DNA of 50,527 bases from Bacillota bacterium (lineage in GTDB: Bacteria; Bacillota; Halanaerobiia; Halanaerobiales; DATFIM01), in assembly GCA_051744825.1 (NCBI GenBank), contig JBNJDL010000002.1:1-50527 (forward strand), in the 5' to 3' direction. The notes beneath the pieces are model-generated. The model did no database searches, was not told the origin of the DNA, and saw only the letters and a list, made by a program, of their open reading frames with translations. Shown here piece after piece: positions 3,373-41,700 of this stretch. Both the position numbers and the translations under genes were made by a program. The number at the start of each line of letters is the position of its first letter. Positions within the stretch are counted from its first letter, which is position 1.

Positions 3373-3421
3373 ATATTTGATAATTCATTGTTAAACCCTT
3401 GAATTCTAACCCACAAAAATA

Positions 3422-3452
3422 CCCGCTTATTTAGCGGGCTTTTTGTTTTTTT
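3422..3452. terminator. bidirectional rho-independent terminator
   Basis: CCCGCT (3422-3427) pairs with AGCGGG (3433-3438) around a 5-nt loop. It is flanked by a T-run on the plus strand (3440-3452) and an A-run that reads as a U-run on the minus strand. It sits between the convergent gene sets. Confidence 0.65.
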
Positions 3453-4397: not shown

Positions 4398-4739
4398 CTA
4401 AAATTCTTTGATTTCAAAATCTAAAAATTCACCATTTTTGAAAACGATGTGTATATTATCGTCTTCAATGTTAATTCTTTCAATTTTTGGTGATATACTA
4501 TTAATTCTTATTCCACTTTCATGCAAGACTATGATTAATAATTCATCATAATCTAAGCCGTGCAATACATCACCATCAAGATGTAACTCCATTAGTTCTA
4601 ATATGGTATCTTTGCGAGCTAAATCAATAGTTATATCCATATCATCAAGTTCTAGGAAATGTCCTAAAAATGTTTCATCTTCGTCAACAAAGTTAATCTT
4701 TTCATCTTTTTTATCCCACTCAAACATAAATCTTTTCAT
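4398..4739 (-). CDS. hypothetical acidic protein (113 aa)
   Basis: AAGGAG RBS supplied by the 3' tail of ribozyme-like element A. D/E-rich. Confidence 0.65.
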   Translation of the reverse strand: MKRFMFEWDKKDEKINFVDEDETFLGHFLELDDMDITIDLARKDTILELMELHLDGDVLHGLDYDELLIIVLHESGIRINSISPKIERINIEDDNIHIVFKNGEFLDFEIKEF

Positions 4740-4833
4740 AAAAACACTCCTTGTATTCTAATTTTCTGATAGGCTATCTCATCAGTAGCGATTACCCAAT
4801 ATCGCTAGACTCCCAATTAAGGGAGTTTCGAAT
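4740..4833 (-). ncRNA. hammerhead-ribozyme-like element A (type II topology)
   Basis: Minus-strand RNA: AUUC GAAAC-UCCC-UUAAUU-GGGA-GUC^UAGCGAU-AUUGGGUA-AUCGCUA-CUGAUGAG-AUAGCCUAUCAG...AAGGAG. The GAAA, CUGAUGA and GUC cores are all in canonical order, with a 6-bp stem III and a 7-bp stem I. Predicted cleavage lies between plus coordinates 4808 and 4807. Confidence 0.7.
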
Positions 4834-5364
4834 TTAATCTTCAAAATTATCTAATTTAAATTCGTAAAAATTTTTGAATTCCTGCATTTTGCTTGCTATT
4901 GCAGGATATTCATTTTGAAATTTAATTGCTTTTTTGTATATTTTTTTCATTTCTTTCATCGCTTCGTCAAATTTTTCTAAAGCTATACTTTTCTGCTTTA
5001 GGTTTCTTTTTACCGCTTCAATATATTTTTTTACATCTTTTTGAAATTCATCTGCGGGAAAATCCCCGTTTTCATCTGCGACATTAAAGAATACTATGTT
5101 GCATCTTCCAAATTCATTGCCGTATTCAGTATCAAATTCCATTCTTTTTGTATTCTTAATTGCAATATTATCTTTATATACATCATTGATATATAGGTCA
5201 TCATCAATCTTTTTTAATCTTTTCTCAAACCAACGATTTATGCTTTTTCCGTCATAGTCAGCAAGTTTATCATCAAACTCCTCTCTTATTTTTTCAAGCA
5301 ATTCTAAATCCATTTTTAAAACTTTAAATTCTTTTTCAATTTTCCATTTAATATCTTTTTTCAT
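4834..5364 (-). CDS. hypothetical protein (176 aa)
   Basis: ORF track. RBS lies in the tail of element B. Stop abuts element A. Confidence 0.65.
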   Translation of the reverse strand: MKKDIKWKIEKEFKVLKMDLELLEKIREEFDDKLADYDGKSINRWFEKRLKKIDDDLYINDVYKDNIAIKNTKRMEFDTEYGNEFGRCNIVFFNVADENGDFPADEFQKDVKKYIEAVKRNLKQKSIALEKFDEAMKEMKKIYKKAIKFQNEYPAIASKMQEFKNFYEFKLDNFED

Positions 5365-5461
5365 AAAAACACTCCTTAAAATTCTATTTCCGATAAGGCT
5401 ATCTCATCAGCACAGGATACCCAATTCCTGCAGACTACCCAACAAGGGCAGTTTCGAATTC
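5365..5461 (-). ncRNA. hammerhead-ribozyme-like element B (type II topology)
   Basis: AAUUC GAAAC-UGCCC-UUGUU-GGGUA-GUC^UGCAGGA-AUUGGGUA-UCCUGUG-CUGAUGAG-AUAGCCUUAUCGG...AAGGAG. The stems differ in sequence from element A but keep pairing, including G-U wobbles. Predicted cleavage between 5433 and 5432. Confidence 0.7.
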
Positions 5462-5800
5462 TTAGACTAGTTGCCAGCCAGTCTTAGCAACTTTGTGTAT
5501 TACCTTGCCATTAGGCAATTCAACTTTTTTCCGATTGTCATTGTGGAAAATCTTAACTTCCACGTAATAATCAGAATGCAATTTTCCAAGTTGCATTACC
5601 ATGTATGGTACTGGTGATGCCATGACAACTGTACCGTCAAATAACGTTAGTTCTGATATTATGCTTTCCATTTCGTCGATATTCCAACCTGATGCTGGTA
5701 CTTCTTTTGTTTCCCAACTATCAAAGTTAGAATTAAGAATTTGTTCTTGTTCTTCCATAAGTGTGTGTTGCTCATTGATTATAACTATAGATTTTTTCAT
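5462..5800 (-). CDS. hypothetical protein (112 aa)
   Basis: ORF track. Flanked by elements B and C. Confidence 0.65.
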   Translation of the reverse strand: MKKSIVIINEQHTLMEEQEQILNSNFDSWETKEVPASGWNIDEMESIISELTLFDGTVVMASPVPYMVMQLGKLHSDYYVEVKIFHNDNRKKVELPNGKVIHKVAKTGWQLV

Positions 5801-5894
5801 AATATCACTCCTTGTATTCTAATTTTCTGATAGGCTATCATCATCAGCGATGGTTACCCAATACCATCGGACTGGGAAAAACCCCAGTTTCGAA
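5801..5894 (-). ncRNA. hammerhead-ribozyme-like element C (variant with an extra U after CUGAUGA)
   Basis: AAUUC GAAAC-UGGG-GUUUUU-CCCA-GUC^CGAUGGU-AUUGGGUA-ACCAUCG-CUGAUGA-U-GAUAGCCUAUCAG. Stems I and III are perfect. A one-nucleotide insertion sits at the core/stem II junction. Predicted cleavage between 5870 and 5869. Confidence 0.55.
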
Positions 5895-6308
5895 TTATTT
5901 TAATTTTTCTATTCTTATTTGGTGGTATTTTGCTTCCATTGCATCAATATCCAACTTGCCGTCAATCCCTGCGAAGTAACCGAAAGGGATATCTTTTTTC
6001 CAAAGCATTCTTTCGTACTTATCGAAACTCGAAAGAGCTTCTTCTAAGTCGTCAGCACACTCAACAAAATAGTCAAGTGCTTGACGGTCGTAAGAAGAAA
6101 GTACTTCGTCAAAACTCATATGCACTTCGCCGTCATTGCAATCGAAGATTGTAACGTATCCATCGCGAAAAACTAATGTAACTGTTTCGCTTGGCTTGTG
6201 ATTATATCCTTCTTCTTCAAGATACTTAACTAAGTCAATCCCTAAGTATCTATATGCTTCCTTAACTTCAACTTCTACATCTTCAATTTCTTCTGTTAAT
6301 TTAATCAT
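5895..6308 (-). CDS. hypothetical strongly acidic protein (137 aa)
   Basis: ORF track. By hand count about 33 D/E against about 16 K/R. Flanked by elements C and D. Confidence 0.65.
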   Translation of the reverse strand: MIKLTEEIEDVEVEVKEAYRYLGIDLVKYLEEEGYNHKPSETVTLVFRDGYVTIFDCNDGEVHMSFDEVLSSYDRQALDYFVECADDLEEALSSFDKYERMLWKKDIPFGYFAGIDGKLDIDAMEAKYHQIRIEKLK

Positions 6309-6400
6309 AGTAACAACTCCTTAAAATTCTATTGCTGATGGGCTATCTCATCAGTAACGACTACCCAATATCGTTAGACTGGGAAAACCCCAGTTTCGAA
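6309..6400 (-). ncRNA. hammerhead-ribozyme-like element D (type II topology)
   Basis: AAUUC GAAAC-UGGG-GUUUU-CCCA-GUC^UAACGAU-AUUGGGUA-GUCGUUA-CUGAUGAG-AUAGCCCAUCAG...AAGGAG. Predicted cleavage between 6377 and 6376. Confidence 0.7.
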
Positions 6401-6943
6401 TTATATACCTTTGTATCTTTGAAAATCTTCTTGGCTTGCAAATGCTCCGCCAAATGGACGATATTCTTCGTTCAACCATTCTTGATTTTTTCTGTATTGT
6501 TCGTCTTTCTCCATTAATCTTTGATGTTCTATTTTTTCATCTATTTCCATTGCTTTTTCTTCAGGCTTGAATCTTTTGAATAACTTGACTCTTTTCCCAA
6601 AGCTACTTAATTTCGAAAGCATTAAGTAATTTTCAATTTGGTATTCACGCTCAAAATTATCTTTAGCAACTTTTTTTCTAACTTTTTCCCGCTTTTCGTC
6701 ATATTCCTTGAATAGTTTTTTGATTTCGTGATAGGCATCAAAACCTTTCACTGTATACCATTTTTCAGTGTTATCATTATTATTACATATTATAACTTGT
6801 GTGAATTTTTCATCTGCATTATACAATTCGTTGAAACTACCGTTTCCGTCTGCAATCAAATCATAATTGCTTAGGTCTGGTGCTGGTACTTTCTTTTCAA
6901 CCATTTTATCTAATTTTTTTATCAAATTTGTATTCATTCCCAT
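6401..6943 (-). CDS. hypothetical protein (180 aa), first gene of the leftward operon
   Basis: AAAGGAG RBS. About 90-nt leader from the consensus promoter. Its stop overlaps the AAUUC of element D. Confidence 0.65.
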   Translation of the reverse strand: MGMNTNLIKKLDKMVEKKVPAPDLSNYDLIADGNGSFNELYNADEKFTQVIICNNNDNTEKWYTVKGFDAYHEIKKLFKEYDEKREKVRKKVAKDNFEREYQIENYLMLSKLSSFGKRVKLFKRFKPEEKAMEIDEKIEHQRLMEKDEQYRKNQEWLNEEYRPFGGAFASQEDFQRYKGI

Positions 6944-7036: not shown

Positions 7037-7065
7037 ATTATATAGCCATATTTTGTGTATGTCAA
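7037..7065 (-). promoter_or_regulatory. consensus sigma70 promoter for the leftward operon
   Basis: On the minus strand: TTGACA (7065-7060), exactly 17 nt of spacer, TATAAT (7042-7037). Confidence 0.75.
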
Positions 7066-26772: not shown

Positions 26773-29700
26773 ATGAAATTTGAAAACTACACTTACAACA
26801 AAACAAAAGATGAAGATGATAAAAACAAAAAATTTAAATATGATAAGAGTAGAGCAAGTAAGTTGTATAACGATATTAGTGTTGACAATGTAAAATTTGA
26901 TAATTTAACATTCAAAGACCAAAAAACAGTTTTGCAATTTTCTGTAGACCAAGGTTTAGATGACTACAATGATTATAAAACTGATGTAATAAAAGATTAT
27001 GGCATTAAAAAGCCGTCTACTAGAACAAACACTACATTTACAGATGAAGGCAAAGTAGATTATGAAACTGAAAGCGTTGAATCAGAAGATAATTCAGGAG
27101 CTTTTTTTGGTAATGAAGTAAGCTATAATAATACACCTGAAGAAAATGCTAGATTGCAATCAGGTGATAAATTAAGAGATGATTTATTTAATTCAGCTAT
27201 TGAAGGTAAAACTAATCAGGGGAAGTTCTATGATTCTAATGATTCCCCTGCATCAAAGCTGAATTTAGATTCTTTATCATCAAAAGAATTATTTAATAAA
27301 GGTATTTATAGCGAAGGTGTAAAGAAAGAACAAGAAGAAATAAAGAATAAAAATCAATCTTTAGTTAAGACTCCTTATGGTGAAAAAACTTATGAAGAAT
27401 TCATGAAAGAAGTTGAAGAAAAGAATGATGTAGCAACTAAATTTAATCAAAAAAGATTAATGAAAAAACCAGTTGAATTAAAAAAATCACAGGTTAATTC
27501 TGAAAATTCAAATGAACCAGCACCTGAACCATTTGATTATATGACAAAAAAAGATTATGCTAACACTTATAAAGGTTTAGACATTGCGTTTAAACCTATT
27601 ATCCCTGCACAAATCCAAGTTTTGGATTCAAGCGGTAAATTGGATAAAGAAGCAACAAAAAAAGCTAGAGAGAGATTTGAAAATGGTGATTCAGTTAAGA
27701 AAACAGTCGGTGGAAGACATATGCATTATAATAAAGATGGTTCTATAGATACAGAAAGAATGAAAGAATCATATAAGACTGAAATGAATTACAAGAAAAA
27801 TGAGTCGCCAGTTGATGTAGATGAGTTATTAGATAAAAGCAGAGATGATTTCATAAATGAAGATAATTCTTTTAGTTTTGGTGCGTTAAAAGAAGATGTA
27901 ATAAGAAAAAGGATTTATAATAAAAGAAGTGAAATTTTAGGTCAAATGGCAGTTAAAGGTTCTAATGATGAATTAAAAAAAGATTTAGCTAAAATTGATT
28001 TGTTTATTGAAAACAATCCTGAAATGCAAGATTCTGAAAAAACTAAAGAATTTAGAAAAGAACATAAAATTTTAGGGTTCTTAGACAAAGGCATATCAGG
28101 AGTAACTGAACAAATTACACTTTGGACTAATAATTTAGGTGAAAAAGCAATGTTTACTGGATTAGGAGCTTTAACAGGAAATCCTCAAGCTGGTTATATT
28201 GCAGGTTCATCAAAAGATATGTTTATGATTGAAACAGGTAATGCATATGAAGAAGCTAGAAAAGCTGGAGTACCACATGAAATAGCTAGGAAAGAAGCTA
28301 TGAAGGCAGGGGTTATTAATGCTGGTATAGAATCAGGTCAAATGGCTTTATTTTTAGCAACGTCAGGATTGTCTAAAATAGGTTTATCAGGAGCTTCTAA
28401 AGTAGGAGCGGGTACTGTAGATAAATTATTTGGTAAATTTGCTTCTAAAGTAGCAAGTAAAACTGGTAGTCAATTAGCTGGGAAAGTAACTGAAATTGGT
28501 ACTAGATGGGGTGCTGGTGCTGTAGGTGAAATGACACAAGAGGGTTTACAAGCGGTAATGAGTAAGAAATATGTTAATGATTCAGTTAATTTAGCAGTAG
28601 AACGTGGATTTTTATCTAAAAATGAATTAAGAGAATATGATTTTGATGATTATTCAAAAGTATTTTCAGATGAATTTAAAGCTGTTGCACCTACTATGAT
28701 AATGTTAGGTGGTATTGGTGTAGGCACAGGTCAAGTTGTAGAAGCTACTAAAAACCATTTTGAAAAGCAAGATAAAAGAGCAAGACAGTTGTATGTTGCA
28801 AAATCAATGGACGAATTAAAATTTCAATCAAAGAAAATTGCAGAAAATCCTGAACATTTTGTAACTGGTGACAAGAAACAAAAAATAATGAATGATGTTA
28901 ATAATTATATTGAGTTTGCTAAAAAATATAAAGAAGATTTTTCAGAAGTCGCTGAATCCGACTTAGGTTTTGATGCAGATTTTGATGAAGTTTTAGATTT
29001 GTTAAACAACTATAAAAAGTATTTAAATGACTTAGAGCAAAATACAAAAGATACTTTAACTAATTCTATTGATTTTGAATTAGAAGAAGGAACTATAGAA
29101 AAAGCAAAAGAAGAATATTCAAAACTTGAAAAGGTATATAAAAATATTGGAATGTCAGAAGAAGATTTAATTGAAGTTAGAAATAAAATAGAAAATAAAG
29201 AAATTGAAAATGAAAAGTTTGTCAATAATATGGATAGTAAAAATTTAGGGAAAATAAAAACTCAAAGAAATAAAAACAATTTAAATATTGATGAACTTGA
29301 AAAAGAAATAATTTCTATTGATGAAAAAATAGAAAATACTGAATCAAAAAAACAAATTGAAGAATTAGAAGAACAAAAATCTTTAAAAGTATCAGAAATG
29401 GAAAATCTGATTAATGACAATGCTATAATTACACAAGAAATAGAAAACAGAATAGAAAGTAATGAAACAGGTAATACTGAAGAACAAGAAAGTTATCAAT
29501 CTCTATATGAAAAAACTAATGAAAATATTGAAAATAAAAATATTAGAATTGAACAAAACGAAATTGAACAAAACGAAATTGAACAAAATAAAATTGAACC
29601 GTTATCAGCCGAAGAATTAAAAAATAAAACAATACCATCTGATAGAGATTTTGAAAGTTTAGGCAGTAGAAAAATAAAATCTATGCAAAATGAATTTGAA

Positions 29701-32700
29701 GAATTAAAACCTTTCATACAAGAGCAAGCTAGAATTACTCAAGGTGAGTTTCAAGCTGGAGTTAAAGGCAAAAGATATCCTATATTAATGGAAGATAGTA
29801 CTAATAAGGCTGAAATAATAGGTTATGATGGTAATCCTAGAATAGCGTCAAAAACTGTAGATAGAATATTAAACAACACTAATGCAACTTACGCAAAAAT
29901 AAATGATGCTTTTAATAATATAATTGAAGGCAATGATAGAGCTAATTTAGCAACTGCTAAAAGAATAGAAGTTATACTAAATGATATATTAACAGAAGGA
30001 TATGAAACTTTTGAGGGTATTGAAATACCGCCTAACGAAGAATATATTCAAACTAAAAGAAGCTTAGGTTTGTCAGAAAATGATTTTGAAATTGGTGAAA
30101 CAGAAGTAGAATCACAAAATGTTGACCAATCTCAAACTAAATTAGAATCAAGTGAGGTTACTAATGAAAATAATCAAACTGAAAATGTGCAAACTGATGG
30201 AAAACAATCGGAGTTTGAACAAGAAAGCGAAGTTAGTCAACCTGAAAGTGTTCAAATGGAAGAAGTTGAAAAAGCAGTCGAATCTAAATCTCAAGCTAAA
30301 CCTAAGCGAGATGAACAAAAACGAGCAGACATAGGCAAAAGATTTTATCAAAAAATGAATACACCTGTAAATTTAGGCAATAAAATTTCTGAAATAAGAA
30401 ATAGACTTATGGAAAAAGGGGTAAGCGAACAAGAAATTGATTTTATATTAGATAATTATTTTGAAGTTATGCAACAATTACAAGATGCAGGAATGGAAGT
30501 TAATTTTGATTTAGAAATAGTAGAATCTATAAGTGATTTAATAGACCAAGACATTTTAAAAGAACATGGTTTAGAAGAAGCAAACAATATTATGATTGAC
30601 GGAGCTACATTAGTAGATTCTGATATTCATAAAAATTCAATAAAAACATCAATGGAAATTGTTAGTTTGCCTAAAAAACCTATAACTGAAACATTTATCC
30701 ATGAGCTATCAGAGATGTATGCTGAAATTTGGCGACAAAATGCATCTGAAAGTTTTGAATCAATTTCTCAAGAATTGATTGATAATGATTTGGCTACTGA
30801 AGATAACGTTCAAGAGTTTATAGCAGATTTTTTAACTGATAATGCACTTGAAAAGAAAATGGATTTAAATGATGAAAATTCAGCTATCGATTCTGTAGTA
30901 GGCGAATATGTTGCTAAGTTTAAAAATTGGGCTAGTAATATAATAAAAAGATTATCTAATTTAAGAAACACAAAAGAGCGAGTACCTGACTTGTTAAATA
31001 AGCAAGCAGAAATGTTTTCTAATGGGAATTGGAAAGAAGCAATAGAAATGTACCAAAGTGCTGAAAAAACTTATGAGAATTCATATTCTGACGTATTACA
31101 GCAAGAAATGGTTAATGATTTGGTTAGTGGTTCTTTAAATCAAACTAAAATGGTTAACAAGTATGGTATAGGTGAAAATCAAGCACAAATATTACTAGAA
31201 AAAATGAATCAATTAGGAAATGAAGAAGAAATAGTTAGTATATTTGATAAAGAAAAACCTAATTTAAGTGATGTAAAAGAAAAAACTTTAGAACCTAATC
31301 AGATAACAAATGAACAAGCTAAAGTTTTAAAAAGAAGTTTAAAAAGAGCTGAAGAAAAAGGTTATTCATTTAATGGTATTGCTAAAAACAATAAAGGTAC
31401 AGTTTATTATAGTAAAACTTTAAATGATAGTGCAAATAGTCTTGCTAATGGTAAAACTTTGGTAACAATGATTGGGAAATCAGGCAAAGTAGCTTCTGAT
31501 GTTAGTAAAGAAGTATTTGACAGTTTGGAAAAATTAGATACAGTTATGGACGAAGATGCTAACACTATATATGATTCTTCTGATTTTGAAGATTCAAATA
31601 ATAAATCGATTGAACAATCTGATGAAGCTGTATCTGATTATGAGATTGAAGAATATAAAGGAAAACCAGTACCAAAGGCTATAGAAAATATAAATTATAA
31701 ATTCAAGAAAGCCGAAGATTATACTAAAAGTGAATATCAAGAAATGTTTAATGTACCTGATAAAAAAATTGATAAAATGTTTGAAATTTTTCAGATTGTT
31801 GAACAGGAAATGTATTCTTTAACTGAAGATGTAAGAAGTCAAGAAAAATATCAAAAAGAATTATCTGATGGTACTAAAGAGAACATGAAAGATTATGAAC
31901 TAGAAGAAAAATCGTCTGTAGATATTCCTTATGCTGACAACTTACTTGAAGAAAAAAATATTGAATTGAATGATGCTAAAAATGAAATAAGAGCAACTAG
32001 ATTTAATGAAGTTGCAAAAGATATTATTGATACAATGGTGGAATATGAACAAAAAGAACCAATTGAGGTAGCAGATGAAGTAGTAGAAGAATCAAATAAA
32101 GTAGAAATCAACAGAAAAGAAAAATATAAACTAGACGGAAAAATAAAAAAACAATATAGTACTGAAAAAATTGATGGTAAGAGAGTTAGAAGTTATATAA
32201 TTAATGCTACTACTCAAGAAGATATTGATAGAATAGCAGATTATTTTGGTAATGAGAAAAAATATGAAGTTTTAACAGAAGGTATGGATACAGAAGGCGA
32301 TTATGAAAATAGTTTTGTAGAAGTATTCATTTATGATGATGAAAATACTGTAACTCAAGCTAGAGATTTATTCAATAGAGATTACAGAAAGTTAAAACAA
32401 AATGATTTTGAAGAAGTAGAAAATGCTAAAACTGAAAGTACTAATGATAAAAATGATAAACTAGAAACTTATGAAAATCATATTATCCCTGAACCTATTT
32501 TAGGTGCTGGAGTATTCGATAATAAAGATTATCATGAATATACAATTGATGAATATGCTGAAAAATTCAATATTCCTGAAGATAAAAAGGAAGAAGTATA
32601 TAAAATCTATAAAAAAACTGAAAGAAAAATAAATAGCGATTTATATGAAAAAGTTTATAATAAAGATAAATATTATAAAAAATCAAATGGTAAAAGAGTA

Positions 32701-35700
32701 TCACTCACAGATAAAGAATTAAGAGAAATGAAACCTATAGATGTAAAACATGCTACTAGTTTATTTAATGAACGAGAGATAGAAATTAATAATGTTAAGG
32801 AAAATGCTAGAAAGAACGAATGGAATAAAATTGCTAAAGAAGTTATAGATACTACTATAGATACTGAAAAAAATAGAGCAGAACTAGAAAAAGCTTTTGA
32901 TTATGATATTAAAGATGCAGATTTATCAGATGAAGCTTTTAAAAAAAGATATGGTATAACTAAAAAAGAAGCTTTAGATGGTGAATATTACAATGGTGAT
33001 GGTTCTTTAGAAGAAAAATATTTAACAGAAGGCGTTAATAGTCACATTAAAAATCCTTTAAAATTCAAAAAGAATATGGAAGCTGTATATAATAAAATGA
33101 CAGCCAAAAAGAAACTTGCTGATAATCATTTAGTTGTAAAAGCTAAGATAAGTCATTTAGATGAATCTTTAATAGTGGGAACAATAAGGAAAAAAAGCGG
33201 TGTTATTTTAACAACAGAAGAAGAATTTGATAGAAGCACAGAAACTAATATTCAAAATAGAAGTATAAAAGACGCAGTAAACCATAATGTTATGAGAATG
33301 AAGTCTAACTTTAAAGACAAATATATGAAAGACTTGAAAGCGTTAGATTCTTCAATAGAATTTAATACTGGTGGTGGCTTAACGGAACACAATGTAGCAA
33401 ATTTAAACTTTGAATATAATAATGACATGAGCGAAGGTACAATAACTTTAAATTTAGATGAAAAACTTAAAGAAAGCATTTCTGAAAAAGAACAACAAGA
33501 AATGATTGAAGAAGAAATATCTAAATTAGAGAAGCAATTAAATAAAGAAAATTTGGAATATGAATTACAGCCAAGTGAAGAAAGTTTTAAAAGAACTATC
33601 AAATTTGAAATAAAAGAAGATGTTAATAAATACAATGAAGAAATGAAGAAAAAAATTGATGATTTCTTTAGTGGGAAAATGACAGAAGATACTAGATTTT
33701 CAGTATCTGAAAGCTTTGAAAAAAGAAAATTTGATATTGATGAGCAAGGCAATTTATTATTTGTTCATGGAATATATAAAGATAAATTAAAAAAAGCTTT
33801 AGATTTAGGTGCTTTACCAATGCCTTCTTTGGCTATGATTGATGATAAAACTTCATATACTGGATTTGGTGAAATTTCACTTATAGGAAGTAAAGAGTTT
33901 TTCAATCCTAACAGAGCTTCAAATAATTTATTTGATTCTGATGTTTATTCACCAAGATTCCCAAGAACAAAAAGATTTTTATATCAAGAAAAAGCAAGAG
34001 AATGGTTAAATGATTTTATTTCTGAATATAAAAAGTTTGATGTTGAAGAAATTGAAGATTCAAGAGCAAGAAATTATTCAGACCCTGAAAGTTTAGCACA
34101 TGCTTTATATCGTTCACCAGCTATAAAAATAAAATATGCTAGTGAAGTATTAGGCGAAGAATATGATTATTTAACTGACAAAAAAGTTATAGAAACAACT
34201 AAGTATATTTCTAAATTGTTTAATAAGAATTTGAAAGATGATTTTATTCAATTTTTAAAAAATGAAACTATAATTGATGAAAAATATATTGATTTAATAA
34301 AAGAAAAAGGAATTAGAAAAGCGACTAAAGAACTTTCTTCTGAAATTACTGCTGATGGAGCAATTAATTCTAAAAAGAAAATGTTTGAATACTTTAAAGA
34401 AAATGTTGATTCTGAAATAACCTTTGAAGATTTTAAAGAAGAAGTTGGTTTTTATAAATCTGAATCAAAAGATGCTTTCAGTTTGATTTTTAAAGATAAT
34501 TTGTCTGAAATTAATGAAGAATTTTCAAATCATTATATTGATAAACAAATTTTTCCGTCAGGAGAATATTCTTTAACTAAAAAGTATAAAAAATGGTTAT
34601 CGAATAAAATTAAATCGGCAGGATTGTTTAGCGAACCTTATTTCACTGAATGGAATCCTGACCAAATGGAAGAAATAAAATATAAAGTAACACCTGAAAA
34701 CGCACTTAAACTTATGAAAAAGAAAAGTTTACAAGCTGGAGAAGGTAATTTAGTTAGTGGATTTAATGAGTTTAAAAGTGCTTTTGCAAAAAAATTAACA
34801 TCTTTCAAAGAAGCTAGAAAAAGAGCTGAAACAAACTTAGCTGATTTTGAAGAAAAAAAGTATAAAGAATATACAGATTCATTAAATAGCAAAATATTAG
34901 AATTTGTTAAAGATTATGATTTATCTACTGGAGGTTCTTCATTTGTAGATGCAGATGCTTTTATAGATACAGTTATAGAGTATAAAGAAAGCACTTTGCA
35001 CGAAATGCGTAAATATAGTGAAAAGTTAGATGCTAATTTTGAAGAAGCTAGTAAAAGATTTAATGAACTAATAACTTTGGCACAGACATTACCAGTTAAT
35101 TATTTTGAATTAAAACCTAATAGAATTGTAGGCTTTGATGAATTTAATTATGCTGTAGTACCTAATAAATTAGATGCTAATTTAAAAGAAAAATTATCTG
35201 ATTTAGGATATAATTTAATTCAATATGATGGTACTCCAAAAGGTTATAGAAAAGCATTAGCTGAAACAAAAGGTGACCCAAAAGTTAGATTTTCAGTAGA
35301 AAACATCGATGAGTCAGAAACGTTGACAGATGAGTCTTTAAAGGTAATAGAAGAAATTAAAGGTTCAGAAAAAGTTAACGACTATAAAAGAAGTGCTAAA
35401 AAAATAAAACAAAATGCAGATATAATCAGAAAAAACTTCGACCCAGTAGATAGTAGTGAAAGCTTTAGAATTGAAGAACTATTAAATAAAATAGATTACC
35501 ATATTAATTTCACTTTAAATGAAACAAACAATTATATAGATTTTATGGAAGATGGATTTGATGCTTTAGAAAAACATTTTAAAGAATTAAAAGAATATGG
35601 TGTGAATTTAGTAGATGATGGTTGGGTAAGAGTAGGACACCCAGTAAACAAGGCATTAAGACGTGAATATGAAACATTGAAAAGATTAACTAAAAAGCAA

Positions 35701-38700
35701 AAGAATAATGAAGGATATTTTCAAGATAGAATTAATGAAATATATCAACTTTTTAGTAAACACGGGCTTGAAAACCTTGATGAAATTGGTAATTTTATAG
35801 AAAGTTTACCAATGACAAAAAGAACTATATTATATGACAATGTTAGATTCTCAACGAATAAAGTAAGTGAAAATAGTATTGGTTATAATAAAGAATTGCC
35901 TAAATCTTACAATAGAGTGGCTGATAATTTTGATAAAAATGAAGTTTTAAATGTACATTATAACAATTTAAAAAATACTAATTTGCTTTTAGAATTGAAT
36001 AGAACTAAAGCAAGAGATGAATACGGCAATCCATTGTTATTGTTTCACGGAAGCACACATAAAATTAATTTTCCTTCACCTAATAAATCGACACCGCGTG
36101 GTTTTTTAGGCAAAAGTTTTTATACTAGCACAAAAGTTGATGATGTAATGACAAATTATTTATTAGATGGTTCTGATTTAAAACAAAGAAAAGGAAGATT
36201 AGAAGAAAAATTATATGAAATGCAAGATTATGAATTACTTGAAAAAGCAGATGCACATAACATTGATTATGACGAAATTTCACCTGATATACCAAACATA
36301 GTAGAAAAAATAGTAGATAAAGAATTGATTGGCGAAGGGGAATATGTTTATCCAGTTTATTTAGATATCAAAAATCCTTTCGTGATTGATGAAAACAGTA
36401 ATGATAGAACTATAAAAATTAGATATGATGAATATACTATGGAAATGTATGAAATAATACAAGAAAAAGAAAAAAGAATTAAAAAATTAGGTAGAATGGT
36501 AGCTGGAATGAATCCTAGTGAGAGGAATGAGTCATTTTTAGAAAATGCTAAAAAAGAAATAATAGAATTAGAAGAAGAACTTGAAATGGATATTGAAGAT
36601 TTTCAAGATGAAGCTATGTATTCGGAACTAGAAGGAAACCTTGTTGATATAGTTGAAGGTATTGCTTCATTCTTAAAATATGATTCTGATATAGAAGATT
36701 TCATTAATCAATCAGAAAATATAGAAGCAGAAATATATGAAGAATTAGATGCATATTTAAATGATTCAAATCCTTATTTAGAATTCACTCCATACGAAGT
36801 GTTTGAAGCAATAAAGAATGTATTAATAGATAAAGAGTTTATGTTTAATGATTTTCATTTAGATGATAATTTTTACAATCCAATAGGCGAAATTATAAGA
36901 CGTGGATTAAAAAGTGCTGGTTTTGATGGTGTAATATTAAAGAATGCTGAAGATAGATTTAATGGTTATGGTTTATCAGTACCTTATGGAACAGACCATT
37001 ATATGGCATTTAACTCTGACCAAATTTATTTCTTTGATGATTATGATTTAGAACAAAAAGAAAGAAATCCATATAAAAATGTTGATTGGGAAGATTATCA
37101 AATTGAAAATTCAGAAACTTGGGAAGAAAAAACTAAAAATAATAAAACAGTTAAACGTTATATGCAAGAACATGATGTTGTTGAAATGATATCTGTTGAT
37201 TGGTTAGATAAATTTAAAGAATTCAGAAGAAATCAAAAAGGTCTTTCAACTGCTGAAAATGCTGAACAACTTGTAAAATCTATTTCTGAAGAAGGTATTA
37301 AAGAACCTATAATAATAGATTATAATGCTAAATCTCAAAAAGCACATATTGCAGAAGGTAACAATCGGTTGATGATAGCACAAAAGATTGGTGCTGAAAA
37401 AGTGCCAGTTAGAGTCATGAATTCAAAATATGAATCTAATGTAATCAATTACAAGGTGCAAAATCCTAAAATAGATTCAAATACTAATCAAGCAGATTTT
37501 AAATTAACTGATATAGTGCCAAAATGGGAATTGGAAAACAATATTGAGCAAAACTACAATCTAAGGTTCTCGATGGAAAATATAAAAGATTTTAGAACTG
37601 AATTAACTGGTTCATTTAAAGGTCAAAATAATTTTTCTAAAATAGCTGTAGTAGATGATATTAAAATGGGAGAAATAGAATATTCTACATTAGAGAATGA
37701 TATAGATAATAAAATTTATATTAAAATGATTGAAGTACCAAAAGAGTTTAGAAGAAGGAAAATTGCACATCAAATGCTTTATGATTTGCAAGAAAACAAT
37801 CCTGATAAAACAATTGACTTTGGTTATTTTACAAGCGATGGTTCTAAAATGATAAATGCTATCGCAGATAAGGTGGAGAGTAAATACTATGATGATTTTG
37901 AAAGATTAGAGGAAATTAATAAAAAATTAGAAAGGTTAGAAAATGCTGATTATGATTCTCTATCTGAAGAAGAAAAAGAGTCGTGGAATCCTTTAAATGA
38001 TGAGCAAATTGATTTAGAAAATAAATTAAGAAACAAAAACAAGTATAATTACAAAATTAAACCTGTTGAAAATAATAATTTGGTTCAGCCAACATCAAAA
38101 AAATGGGATAAAGGAGCGACATACGAAGAAGTCAAAAAACAATTCCCTGATGTTAATGGTGAAGTGGAAGAAGGTAAAGAGGCTCATTCTACACAAATCA
38201 AGACAACTTTAGGAACTTATCAAAAAGTTATTGATGAATTTGTTGAAAAAAATAACAAAGTTTTAGATTTTAGTGCTGGTTTAGGTTATGGCACAAGATA
38301 TGGTAAATTTAAAAACTTTGGTATTGAATTTGACATTTCTTCAAAACAAGTAACTTTAGATAATGTACAAAGTAAATATTCTAAAATAATAACATCACAT
38401 GGCTATAAGAAGAAGAAAGATTCTTATGTTAAAGATATAAGTAATTTAGAAGAATCGGAATACATGTCTGATATTGATTCAATGATAAAAAAAATAAAAG
38501 GTTTATTCCCTGAAGATGCTGAAATGTTATTCGAAGCTAGCGAACCATTTGCAGAAGAATATTACAATCCAGAGTATACTGATTCAAAAGAAATAGCTTC
38601 AAATAAATATGATTTAGTTATTAATAATGCCGTATTAAATGTAGTGACTCAAGATGTAAGAGATGATATAGTTGCTGAAATAGGTAGAGTTTTAAAACCT

Positions 38701-41700
38701 GACGGCAAAGCAATAATAATGGCTCGTGGTAGAAGTGGCATTGTAAATTCTAAGACAGGCAAGAAAATTGAAGGTGGAAATAAATATGCTAGATATATGC
38801 CAAATAAAAAATCATATCAAAAAGGTTTTTCAAAAGGCGAATTATTTGAATATGTAAAAGATGTATTGAACCAAAAATCAGAAGGCGTTGATTTTGAAGT
38901 AGAAAAAATGCGTAAATCTAATTCAGGTACAGCATCAACTAAAAATGGCGTTATAATAACTAAGAAATCTAAGATGTTTGATGTTAGATTTTCAGCAGAA
39001 GAAAATAATATTCCTACAAGACCGCCAAGATTGCCTGATGACGCATTTTTTGAAATGGAAGAAGATTTATATGATGCTAAGATGAAACAATGGGAAAAGT
39101 ACCAAAATGACTTCAGAAAGCATACTAAAAAAATACTTGACCAAGATAATGTGTTTAGTATAAGAAAAGGTGATGATTTTGCGATTATACACCCAAGTAC
39201 CAAAGGTAGTAATTATCAAATTAGTTATTTTGATAAAGACGGCGTTTGGGGCGATACACAACATGAAACATTTGAACAAGTTATAAATGATTTATTTGAG
39301 CATAACTTTGATGATATAGAAAATTTAGAAAGAATGTCAGATGTTAGATTTTCAACTAATCAAGAAAAAGTAGGAAAAAAAGTAGGGTATACATCTTATG
39401 TTCATAAATCAGCAATAGATGCATTGAATAATAATTTAAAAAAATTACATGATAATGCAGTACAACATATACCAAAAGAATTTGGTGATTATGAAATAGT
39501 TAAAATTAATAAAAAGACAGGTTTTGTTAGTTTTATAAAATCACCTAATTGGGATACGGCACATGAACCTACAGTAGGGGATTCTATTAAAATTAAAAAT
39601 GATGGCGAATATAGTATAAGACATGCATCTAAAAAGAATCCTAAAATTTATCATCATAAACATTTATTTGTTAAAGAAAATTATGAAGGTTTTGATATTC
39701 AAGAGTCACGATTAAGAAGTCAAATTTGGAATAATTTAGATGGTATAAATAAACGAAAAATAGGTTCGAAAAAATATTGGGAAGAAACTGTATTACCTAA
39801 GATTAATAAGGAAATACAAAATCTTAAAGAAAATGATGAATATAATAAAAGAACAGATTTAACAGAAAATGTTGAAAAATGGTTTGAAAATCATGTGAGA
39901 TTTTCTACTGAAAATGTTGAAAAATCAAAACTTGATGAAAGAATAAGAGAATTAAAAGTTAAAATTGAGCAACTGGAAAAAGATGTAGAGAAAGACCCTA
40001 ATTTAAGATATGAGTTAAGAAATGCAAGAATTGAATATTTTGGTTTAGGCGTTGAAAAAATAAGTAGAAATACTGAATATGCTTTTGAAAAAGTAGTGAA
40101 TTCGTGGTTTCAATCAAAAGATTTAAAACAATTTAGAAGTATGGTTAAAATCAAAAAACTTCAAAATAGAATCAAAAGTATAACTGGAGAAAAAAGTAAG
40201 TTAGGCAATATAATTTATGGTAAAGAAGCTAAAAAACTAGATAGTGCAATACAAATTTATATTGATTTGTTAGGCAATACTGATGAAATGATTGAAAAAT
40301 ATTATGATAAATTAACTGATGAGCAAAAAGAAATTGTTGATTTAAGTCAAGATTTACCTGACGAAGCAAAGCAAATAGCTGATGAAGTACTAGCAATGTC
40401 AGAGGAAATAGGACAACGTGGTTTAAGTGCAGGAGTGCTTAAAAATCTTAGAGAAAATCATTTATCTAGATTTTGGTTAGATGATAAAGAAAGAGATAAA
40501 AGTAATGTATCTCATGCTAAATTCAGTACAAAAACTAGTCTTGCTAAAATGAGAACTTTAGAATCTATATTAGAAGGCTGGGCTAATAATAAAGAATTAG
40601 CTATGAAAGGTGCAACAACTGCGTTAGATGCACAACTTGATTCTTTAGTTAAAGCTATAGAAGATGATAGATTAATAAATACAATGTTAAACACTAAAGG
40701 TTTTGAAGATGAAAAATTGCTTATAAATTATAAAGCTGATGGGTATGTTCCAATAAATCACCCAATGTTTAAAAAATGGTTTCCAGTTAATGGTAATTAT
40801 GAGAAAAAAGATTTTAAAATTGATGATGCTAGAGAAGGTCAATTAGTAGAAGTAGATGGGAGAAAAGGCAGATTAGGTAAATTTGATAAGAAGCAAATAA
40901 AAGGACAATTTAATATTGATGGTGAAGAATCTAAGAAAATAATACCTATTATATTTGAAGAAAAAGGCGGAACAATTGTTGAAAAACATAATGTAAGCGA
41001 TATAGAAAAAATATCAGCTTCAGGTAAAGATTTCTTCATAGATGATAGCGACACAATTTGGGCTAACAAAACTTTATATATGCCTGAAAAACAAGCCAAA
41101 AGAATGAACAAAATTTTAGGAAAATCTACATTATACGATGTTGAATTCTTAGGCACAAAACCTTTTGATTGGTTTACAACAGTTAATGGCATGTTAAAGT
41201 CTTGGATACTTCAAACTTCATTTTTTCATCATTTAGCATTCATGAGAAGTTATTATTTAGGTACTAACAATAAAAAAACATCTGAATTGAACTTCTATAA
41301 AGCATATAAAAACGGAATGGATAAAATTGAGAATTTAAATGAAGATATTGAATTGTTAGTTAAAAATGGAATGACTTTAGGTAGATTACAAGATTGGGAA
41401 GAAAGAGTATTTAATCAAGAACAAGGTCGCATAGGCAAGTTATTAGATAAAACTAAAGCGACTAAAGTAATTAAGAATAAAATGTTGGAATATAGAGAAA
41501 GACAAGCTAATTTCTTATTTAAACAGTTTGGTGCTGGTCTTAAAGCACAAGCTGGTTTAATAGAATTAAGACATATGCGAAATAAATACAAAAAAGAGTT
41601 AGCTAATGGAACGGTCACTGAAGATAAAATTGCTGAAACAGTAGGTAATTTATTAAACAATGACTTTGGTGGATTGCATTTGCAAAGATTAGAGCGTAAT

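Follow-up and report, generated by a model that had tools for sequence, protein, structure and literature searches.

Four type II hammerhead ribozymes fill consecutive gene junctions of an AT-rich phage operon and probably process its transcript into single-gene mRNAs

What does a self-cleaving ribozyme do when it is wedged between the stop codon of one phage gene and the Shine-Dalgarno (SD) sequence of the next? This question is raised by the region 4740–6403 of the phage contig JBNJDL010000002.1, whose 50,527-nt stretch analyzed here is referred to as the window. On the minus strand of this region we identified four type II pseudoknot hammerheads of ~65 nt, one in each gap between consecutive open reading frames (ORFs). 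We put at roughly 60% the probability that these are four active ribozymes (activity is predicted) that split a polycistronic phage RNA and uncouple its cistrons. The identity of the ribozymes, their topology, the positions of the translation signals and the generality of the spacing are shown directly. In every copy, the conserved segments follow one another in the order C-GAAA, hairpin, GUC, hairpin, CUGAUGA and (U)GAUAGCC, which is the arrangement of a hammerhead with stems III and I closed and stem II open. The four copies and their 3′ tails are as follows.

6338–6401, minus strand: hammerhead 1; C11.1 at 6398, stem III at 6394–6378, predicted cut at 6377/6376, stem I at 6376–6355, core CUGAUGA at 6354–6348, stem II G-A at 6347–6346, pseudoknot strand GCCCA at 6343–6339
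6309–6340, minus strand: tail of hammerhead 1; CAUCAG at 6340–6335, which complements core CUGAUG, then an A/U-rich spacer with UAGAAU and the SD
5830–5895, minus strand: hammerhead 2; C11.1 at 5892, predicted cut at 5870/5869, core at 5847–5841, pseudoknot strand GCCUA at 5835–5831
5801–5832, minus strand: tail of hammerhead 2; UAUCAG at 5832–5827, spacer, then the SD
5394–5459, minus strand: hammerhead 3; C11.1 at 5456, predicted cut at 5433/5432, core at 5410–5404, pseudoknot strand GCCU at 5399–5396 (4 bp)
5365–5396, minus strand: tail of hammerhead 3; UUAUCGG at 5396–5390, which complements CUGAUGA via G-U pairs, then the SD
4769–4833, minus strand: hammerhead 4; C11.1 at 4830, predicted cut at 4808/4807, core at 4785–4779, pseudoknot strand GCCUA at 4774–4770
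4740–4771, minus strand: tail of hammerhead 4; UAUCAG at 4771–4766, spacer, then the SD

The pattern CGAAAC..GTC..CTGATGA occurred four times in the window, compared to 0.01 matches expected from dinucleotide shuffles. Stems I and III were 100% paired across the four copies with changes on both sides in 9 of the 13 pairs, a result that none of 500 shuffles reached; a comparison of the four copies gave 98.8% of cells paired and nine compensatory pairs. Because both sides of stems I and III changed while pairing was kept, the RNA fold is under selection. The catalytic core (C3-U4-G5-A6-U7-G8-A9, G12-A13-A14, the A15.1-U16.1 pair and H17 that is not G) was present in all four copies.

The Rfam model RF02276 (Hammerhead_II; gathering score 37) reported copy 3 (5394–5459) at 47.2 bits and copy 4 (4769–4833) at 46.4 bits, while copies 1 and 2 were not reported by RF02276 even when a 631-nt sequence was searched. 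Because RF02276 missed these two copies, we built an independent covariance model (R1) from 24 equal-length type II hammerheads of other viral contigs, with zero sequences from the window, and ran it with filters off. The equal-length set (A3) was used for this model; a length-heterogeneous MAFFT alignment (A2) was structurally inconsistent. With R1, copies 4, 1, 3 and 2 scored 60.1, 57.5, 51.3 and 50.1 bits, respectively, and the next-best match in the 50.5-kb window scored 11.1 bits. The window thus contains exactly four copies, all of which are members of the type II hammerhead family. Copy 2 was probably missed by Rfam because of an extra U (5840) between A9 and G10.1. The same extra U after A9 (CUGAUGA-U-G...) recurs in other viral type II hammerheads (loci L072, L086, L087, L136, L151, and L167 of the survey described below). 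Copy 1 (6338–6401) went unreported by RF02276 despite its canonical core and its R1 score of 57.5 bits; its miss is a gap in the sensitivity of the RF02276 model or filters for AT-rich hammerheads with short loops.

In the original prediction, stem II was a puzzle: the conserved AAUUC was taken as its 5′ strand, with the downstream GAAU(U) as a possible partner. The family description solves this puzzle, as the stem II of type II hammerheads is often only 2 bp and loop I engages the nucleotides right after it in a pseudoknot of 4 bp or longer (Perreault et al., PMC3088659). Accordingly, stem II in the window consists of two invariant pairs, C11.1-G10.1 and U11.2-A10.2, next to a stem III hairpin of 6–7 bp and a stem I hairpin of 7 bp. 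Of the AAUUC segment, stem II takes up U11.2 and C11.1 alone, and the stop codons lie 1–4 nt outside the paired nucleotides. The pseudoknot is formed by loop I UGGGU, which is invariant, with the 3′ tail GCC(C/U)A after a UA linker; it measures 5 bp except in copy 3, where it has 4 bp. Within the window the pseudoknot showed no covariation, with a single G-U/G-C change. In the 24 model sequences, loop I and the tail were seen by eye to change together; a pair count in a fixed register gave 59% paired.

The proposed pairing of AAUUC with GAAU(U) found no support, as the duplex energies of the 5′ flank with the tail equaled those of shuffled controls. For the 15-nt 5′ flanks of the window copies, z was 0.11, 0.46, −0.84 and 0.94 (50 shuffles), and among 151 viral type II hammerheads the mean z of flank/tail complementarity was 0.04, with 6.6% of the values below −1.64. 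Folding of the four copies with their flanks by RNAalifold returned stems III and I and a third hairpin, with no closing helix. A closing helix, an extended stem II and an anti-SD pairing of flank and tail were therefore rejected at this locus because none exceeded the shuffles. Closing or flank-tail helices do exist in a few lineages (L008/L017, L007/L011/L024, L122, and L162) but are not general. The closing helix shared by L008 and L017, GGAAUAA/UUAUUCC, contains G-C pairs. In L007 (10122–10184), L011 (2763–2825), and L024 (5302–5364; reverse strand), UCUCC of the 5′ flank complements the SD GGAGG (z = −3.4), and cleavage in these three could free a sequestered ribosome-binding site.

The placement of the translation signals around each copy is as follows.

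TAA 6403–6401, SD AAGGAG 6322–6317, ATG 6308, minus strand: copy 1; 2 nt from the end of the stop codon to C11.1, 8 nt from SD to ATG
TAA 5897–5895, SD AAGGAG 5813–5808, ATG 5800, minus strand: copy 2; 2 nt from the end of the stop codon to C11.1, 7 nt from SD to ATG
TAA 5464–5462, SD AAGGAG 5377–5372, ATG 5364, minus strand: copy 3; 5 nt from the end of the stop codon to C11.1, 7 nt from SD to ATG
TAA 4836–4834, SD AAGGAG 4752–4747, ATG 4739, minus strand: copy 4; 3 nt from the end of the stop codon to C11.1, 7 nt from SD to ATG

The stop contexts agree with those described in the original prediction, being UAA-UUC-GAAAC in copies 1 and 2, UAAG-AAUUC-GAAAC in copy 3 and UAA-AUUC-GAAAC in copy 4. 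The coordinates of all four copies likewise bear out that AAGGAG stands 7–8 nt ahead of the next AUG and is preceded by UAGAAU(UUUU/AC). The intergenic gaps are 92–97 nt long and nearly all ribozyme, and it is because the ribozyme fills the whole spacer that the upstream stop codon and the downstream SD are so close to it. The SD begins 25–27 nt past CUGAUGA and ~16 nt beyond the pseudoknot strand, and therefore adjoins the ribozyme rather than being part of it. An internal promoter with TAGAAT for its −10 box (ATGAGA-16-TAGAAT, 9/12) was also considered and was rejected because the spacing varies among the copies; a transcript starting there would lack the SD or have it truncated, and promoter-like matches were not enriched (26 vs. 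20.3 expected).

Whether such adjacency is peculiar to this locus was answered by a survey of IMG/VR, in which two pattern scans yielded 179 loci (L001–L179) and a structural filter left ~150 distinct type II hammerheads with usable flanks. In 100 of 150 viral type II hammerheads (67%), a long upstream ORF stopped 1–6 nt before C11.1. The counts at 1, 2, 3, 4, 5 and 6 nt were 25, 24, 8, 18, 11 and 14, respectively, with at most 2 per position beyond and none at 0, and the 1–6-nt spacing was found in 62% of the 117 clusters obtained by single-linkage on flank similarity. Among 108 cases with a stop codon within 12 nt, 25 overlapped a paired stem II base, 17 abutted it and 47 left a gap of 1–3 nt, while the stop distance rose weakly with stem II length (Spearman 0.22). 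On the downstream side of these ~150 hammerheads, the SD and the start codon lay at medians of 17 and 29 nt after CUGAUGA, and the tails in the window are somewhat longer than the typical viral ones. The 6-nt zone held another 53 stop triplets that do not terminate a long ORF, which makes the 5′ flank rich in stops in several frames. Same-strand arrays of 4–8 hammerheads, spaced 250–1100 nt apart, were found at L128, L001, L136, L067, L072, and L123.

Adjacency to a stop codon and an SD is thus the normal state of viral type II hammerheads, and this locus is a typical example of a widespread design. Of the claim that the ribozyme ends are "fused" to translation signals, the adjacency stands, while the implied peculiarity of the locus does not. 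Stop codons were unmentioned in the hammerhead literature that we searched by term, and SD sites were unmentioned in Perreault et al. (PMC3088659). The spacing rule is a modest generalization that we did not find in the searchable literature.

The four tails contain a further signal, which the original prediction had flagged as a CUGAU/AUCAG hairpin competing with the core. This hairpin proved to be real: it dominates the minimum-free-energy (MFE) fold of every copy as well as the consensus from RNAalifold. Just past the pseudoknot strand, the segment (C/U)AUCAG, or UUAUCGG in copy 3, complements CUGAUG, and the resulting hairpins lie on the minus strand at 6335–6354, 5827–5847, 5390–5410 and 4766–4785. 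Their energies range from −2.8 to −7.2 kcal/mol, compared to −4.3 to −7.9 kcal/mol for the pseudoknot duplex. CAUCAG also stands right after stem II in four unrelated viral hammerheads (L071, L112, L137, and L138), for which we take well under one case to be expected by chance, a rough estimate of our own made with no computed control. The tails of copies 2 and 4 are identical over 33 bases, yet the stems of these copies differ by compensatory changes and the genes they flank are unrelated.

The reading that we prefer runs as follows. As the polycistronic RNA of this nine-gene unit, in which the ribozymes occupy the first four of eight junctions, emerges, each ribozyme would fold and cut after GUC, and the first four cistrons would be freed as single-gene mRNAs. 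Since the type II permutation puts the cut between two closed hairpins, every new end would be capped. The upstream mRNA would extend 24–29 nt past its UAA and close with the stem III hairpin, which would leave a single-nucleotide overhang bearing a 2′,3′-cyclic phosphate. The downstream mRNA would start with a 5′-OH, its first base paired in stem I, and continue through an A/U-rich spacer to AAGGAG in a leader of 68–69 nt. The products would be joined by only 2 bp and core contacts, so their release should be fast and effectively irreversible. The net effect would be to make each cistron independent of its neighbors in stability and translation, as in a natural counterpart of engineered ribozyme insulators. 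The product ends proposed earlier, namely stem III with a 2′,3′-cyclic phosphate on one side and a 5′-OH followed by the 7-bp stem I and its own SD on the other, follow from the topology; for this locus, we infer that the RNA is cleaved in vivo, that its new ends are protected and that the cistrons are insulated.

This reading is consistent with what has been proposed for other phages. Clustered phage hammerheads were suggested to cut long transcripts into single-gene mRNAs that differ in stability or translation (PMC3088659; PMC6765202), and the analogy with insulators drawn in the original prediction is a fair one that fits this published proposal of phage transcript processing (PMC3088659; PMC6765202). 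Type II hammerheads near phage-like genes of Desulfovibrio vulgaris cleave in vivo (PMC8782182).

Several observations weigh against processing of the transcript into single-gene mRNAs. Minimum-energy folds favor the hairpin that sequesters the core over the 2-bp stem II, although the programs ignore the pseudoknot, and with this folding preference cleavage could be partial or conditional. A 5′-OH is not protective everywhere, as the product of the glmS ribozyme is degraded by RNase J1 in Bacillus, so protection would have to come from the terminal hairpin. Copy 2 carries the extra U described above, and ribozymes are found in only four of the eight junctions of the operon. As no close relatives of this phage were found in the searches described below, covariation of the tail and pseudoknot cannot be checked within the lineage.

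Among the alternatives, the most far-reaching holds that the spacing is a selected design rule tied to the terminating ribosome and that the tail hairpin is a lock or attenuator, which would make type II hammerheads a translation-aware intercistronic device of phages rather than constitutive cutters. We consider this unlikely, and the two ideas that it combines can be weighed one at a time.

The first idea is that cleavage is gated by termination of translation, with a ribosome at the upstream stop codon covering and unwinding C11.1, G12-A14 and the base of stem III, so that the RNA could be cut only while the stop codon is free of a ribosome; in a variant, stem III is positioned exactly where the front of the ribosome stands during termination, leaving no naked 3′ untranslated region. 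In both variants, ribozyme action or mRNA decay would be tied to translation of the upstream gene, and together we regard them as rather doubtful. With a stop codon in its A site, a bacterial ribosome extends ~7–9 nt past that codon, a reach that matches the 5–10 nt from the stop codon to A15.1. The stop distances of 1–6 nt are sharp-edged and never 0, the pattern survives clustering of related loci, and 42 of the 108 stop codons within 12 nt touch or overlap a paired base of stem II. A bias toward deletions would, however, be expected to give the same result in compact phage genomes, with the spacer shrinking to the stem II minimum; the stop distance tracks stem II length weakly, and stops lie farther away in one third of the viral hammerheads. 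In Firmicutes, transcription typically outpaces the first ribosome, and if the host is a Firmicute, the fast pseudoknot hammerhead would cut before the ribosome arrived. The geometry would permit coupling of cleavage to termination, since a terminating ribosome would cover C11.1-A14; compaction explains the spacing equally well. Compaction down to the stem II strand and ribosome geometry may each account for the 1–6-nt spacing, and the two are inseparable here.

The second idea concerns the tail hairpin, which may act as a conformational switch that sets the fraction cut at each junction or as a lock that, after cleavage, keeps the leader off the SD; either would fix the relative expression of five genes. 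This, too, strikes us as rather improbable. The presence of the hairpin in the MFE folds of all four copies and in the consensus, its energy, which is comparable to that of the pseudoknot duplex, its retention in copy 3 through G-U pairs despite an inserted base, and the recurrence of CAUCAG in L071, L112, L137, and L138 all speak for such a role. Conversely, the hairpin was found in only 5 of ~119 lineages and is not family-wide, an invariant core strand means that it shows no compensatory changes, the estimate of enrichment is rough and partly post hoc, and folding programs ignore the pseudoknot and the tertiary core.

It is very unlikely that the ribozyme with its SD is primarily a repeated boundary element, a portable junction that spreads or favors the shuffling of ORFan accessory genes through recombination between the repeats, with RNA cleavage being secondary. 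The modules are far more alike than the genes they flank, with a mean column identity of 77%, and these genes are ORFans that are unrelated to one another. From copy to copy the class of tail alternates, as copies 1 and 3 share ..AAUAGAAUUUUAAGGAGU while copies 2 and 4 share the 33 identical bases GAUAGCCUAUCAGAAAAUUAGAAUACAAGGAGUG, and elsewhere the genes flanked by clustered hammerheads are not constant (Perreault et al., PMC3088659). Nevertheless, stems I and III diverged almost everywhere with pairing kept, which shows that selection acts on the RNA fold rather than on DNA identity, every copy retains an intact catalytic core and the limits of the modules coincide with a functional ribozyme plus ribosome-binding site. 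Tandem duplication of gene-plus-ribozyme units was rejected as an origin of the array, since the flanked proteins are not paralogous.

That the four elements are inactive relics or chance look-alikes is extremely improbable: Rfam reports just two of the four copies and copy 2 has the extra U after A9, but the chance expectation of the motif is only 0.01, the stems carry compensatory changes, all four copies score 50–60 bits with an independent model and the U insertion is also present in other viral hammerheads.

Comparison with known systems places the locus further. Like the pseudoknot type II hammerheads of RF02276 (PMC3088659), the copies in the window have CUGAUGA, GAAA, a cut after GUC and a 4–5-bp pseudoknot just past stem II, and their stem I segment of 22 nt is of the commonest length among the viral examples. 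They differ from the RF02276 consensus in a linker from stem II to the pseudoknot that is longer by one base (GAUA-GCC vs. Gc-A-GCC), in a pseudoknot that is one pair longer (UGGGU/GCCYA vs. UGGU/GCCA), in the core-complementary segment with which the tail continues, and in the extra U of copy 2.

The window also has the features of a clustered array, as four same-strand hammerheads separate five consecutive ORFs on a phage contig with terminase genes. In the prophage clusters of Clostridium scindens, Agrobacterium tumefaciens, and Azorhizobium caulinodans (PMC3088659, Fig. 3), a single gene, small, variable and often hypothetical, likewise lies between one same-strand ribozyme and the next; in the window, in contrast, the four copies all belong to one subtype, the phage is uncultured and AT-rich, and the flanked genes are ORFans. 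Phage arrays that flank single genes and the idea of processing into single-gene mRNAs are therefore already known, having been published in 2011 (PMC3088659).

Another phage example is HHphage of the haloviruses HF1 and HF2, which precedes a start codon by 13 nt on a polycistronic early transcript and whose transcript has a mapped 5′ end within 3 nt of the cleavage site (PMC3088659). Unlike the copies in the window, HHphage belongs to an archaeal virus, is a core variant that needs high Mg2+ and stands as a single copy at the start of a transcript rather than in an intercistronic array.

Similar to the window copies, the synthetic insulator RiboJ (PMC6206723) places a hammerhead just upstream of the ribosome-binding site, where it removes the upstream RNA context and leaves a structured 5′ end with a 5′-OH, and the hairpin after the ribozyme belongs to the leader. 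RiboJ, however, goes back to the hammerhead of a satellite RNA, carries an additional hairpin by design and insulates promoters from 5′ untranslated regions, while the elements in the window are natural, of type II and located between cistrons, and would also give the upstream mRNA a hairpin-capped 3′ end. The comparison is an analogy of function and not one of membership. RiboJ raises transcript abundance ~2-fold and protein 2–10-fold (PMC6206723). By analogy, the geometry of an insulator would fit a 68–69-nt leader that begins with the stem I hairpin and has its SD in an A/U-rich stretch, and an effect on expression is predicted.

The operon itself lies on a contig that represents an AT-rich tailed phage (27–34% GC) with genes for the small and large terminase subunits. 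Its features around the ribozymes are as follows.

7037–7065, minus strand: sigma-70-type promoter TTGACA-17-TATAAT with a 12/12 consensus match, putative in function
6401–6943, minus strand: orf180, first gene, with no Pfam or PHROG match
5895–6308, minus strand: orf137, an acidic ORFan between hammerheads 1 and 2
5462–5800, minus strand: orf112, between hammerheads 2 and 3
4834–5364, minus strand: orf176, an ORFan between hammerheads 3 and 4
4398–4739, minus strand: orf113, a very acidic protein and the last gene with a hammerhead in front
3421–3439, minus strand: intrinsic-terminator-like hairpin with a U-run (a bidirectional hairpin) at the end of the nine-gene operon

The four genes past orf113 (4388–3427) are separated by gaps of 0–30 nt with no ribozyme between them. 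None of the small proteins around the ribozymes (4398–6943) matched Pfam or PHROG, and in a search of a 5.8-billion-sequence protein database orf176 and orf137 each matched itself alone. Several of the proteins separated by ribozymes are, by eye, rich in acidic residues. The genes of the operon are probably early or accessory genes. The anti-restriction gene ardA adjoins hammerheads in Perreault et al. (PMC3088659), and by analogy an anti-defense role of the ribozyme-flanked genes is conceivable. The promoter, the terminator, the strong AAGGAG sites and a GC content of ~29% suggest a low-GC host that uses SD sequences.

Searches for relatives of the phage gave little. Blastn of 50,697 phage records returned no match to the window, a pattern scan of metagenomes for relatives gave mostly chance matches, an exact-protein look-up found nothing and four terminase relatives (42–44% identity) had no hammerhead. 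Elsewhere in the window, at 26773–42855 on the plus strand, a single ORF of 5360 amino acids contains a PBECR5 nuclease domain (E = 1.2e-18) and matches ParB_N and a methyltransferase weakly; it is similar to the giant "polyvalent" proteins that phages and conjugative elements encode.

The role of self-cleaving ribozymes in bacteria and phages is still open, and a review in 2019 stated that "additional work is needed" (PMC6765202). In this regard, the locus is a clean natural test bed, with one promoter, one terminator, nine genes and four near-identical modules between unrelated small genes, and its four ribozyme-free junctions could act as internal controls. The ~95-nt natural parts of ribozyme plus ribosome-binding site could act as intercistronic insulators in low-GC hosts. 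For the family as a whole, the survey adds a quantitative rule, namely that in viruses a type II hammerhead takes up the intergenic spacer and the upstream stop codon stands 1–6 nt from the core, and this rule turns "mRNA processing" into concrete questions on the spacing, the end hairpins and the tail hairpin.

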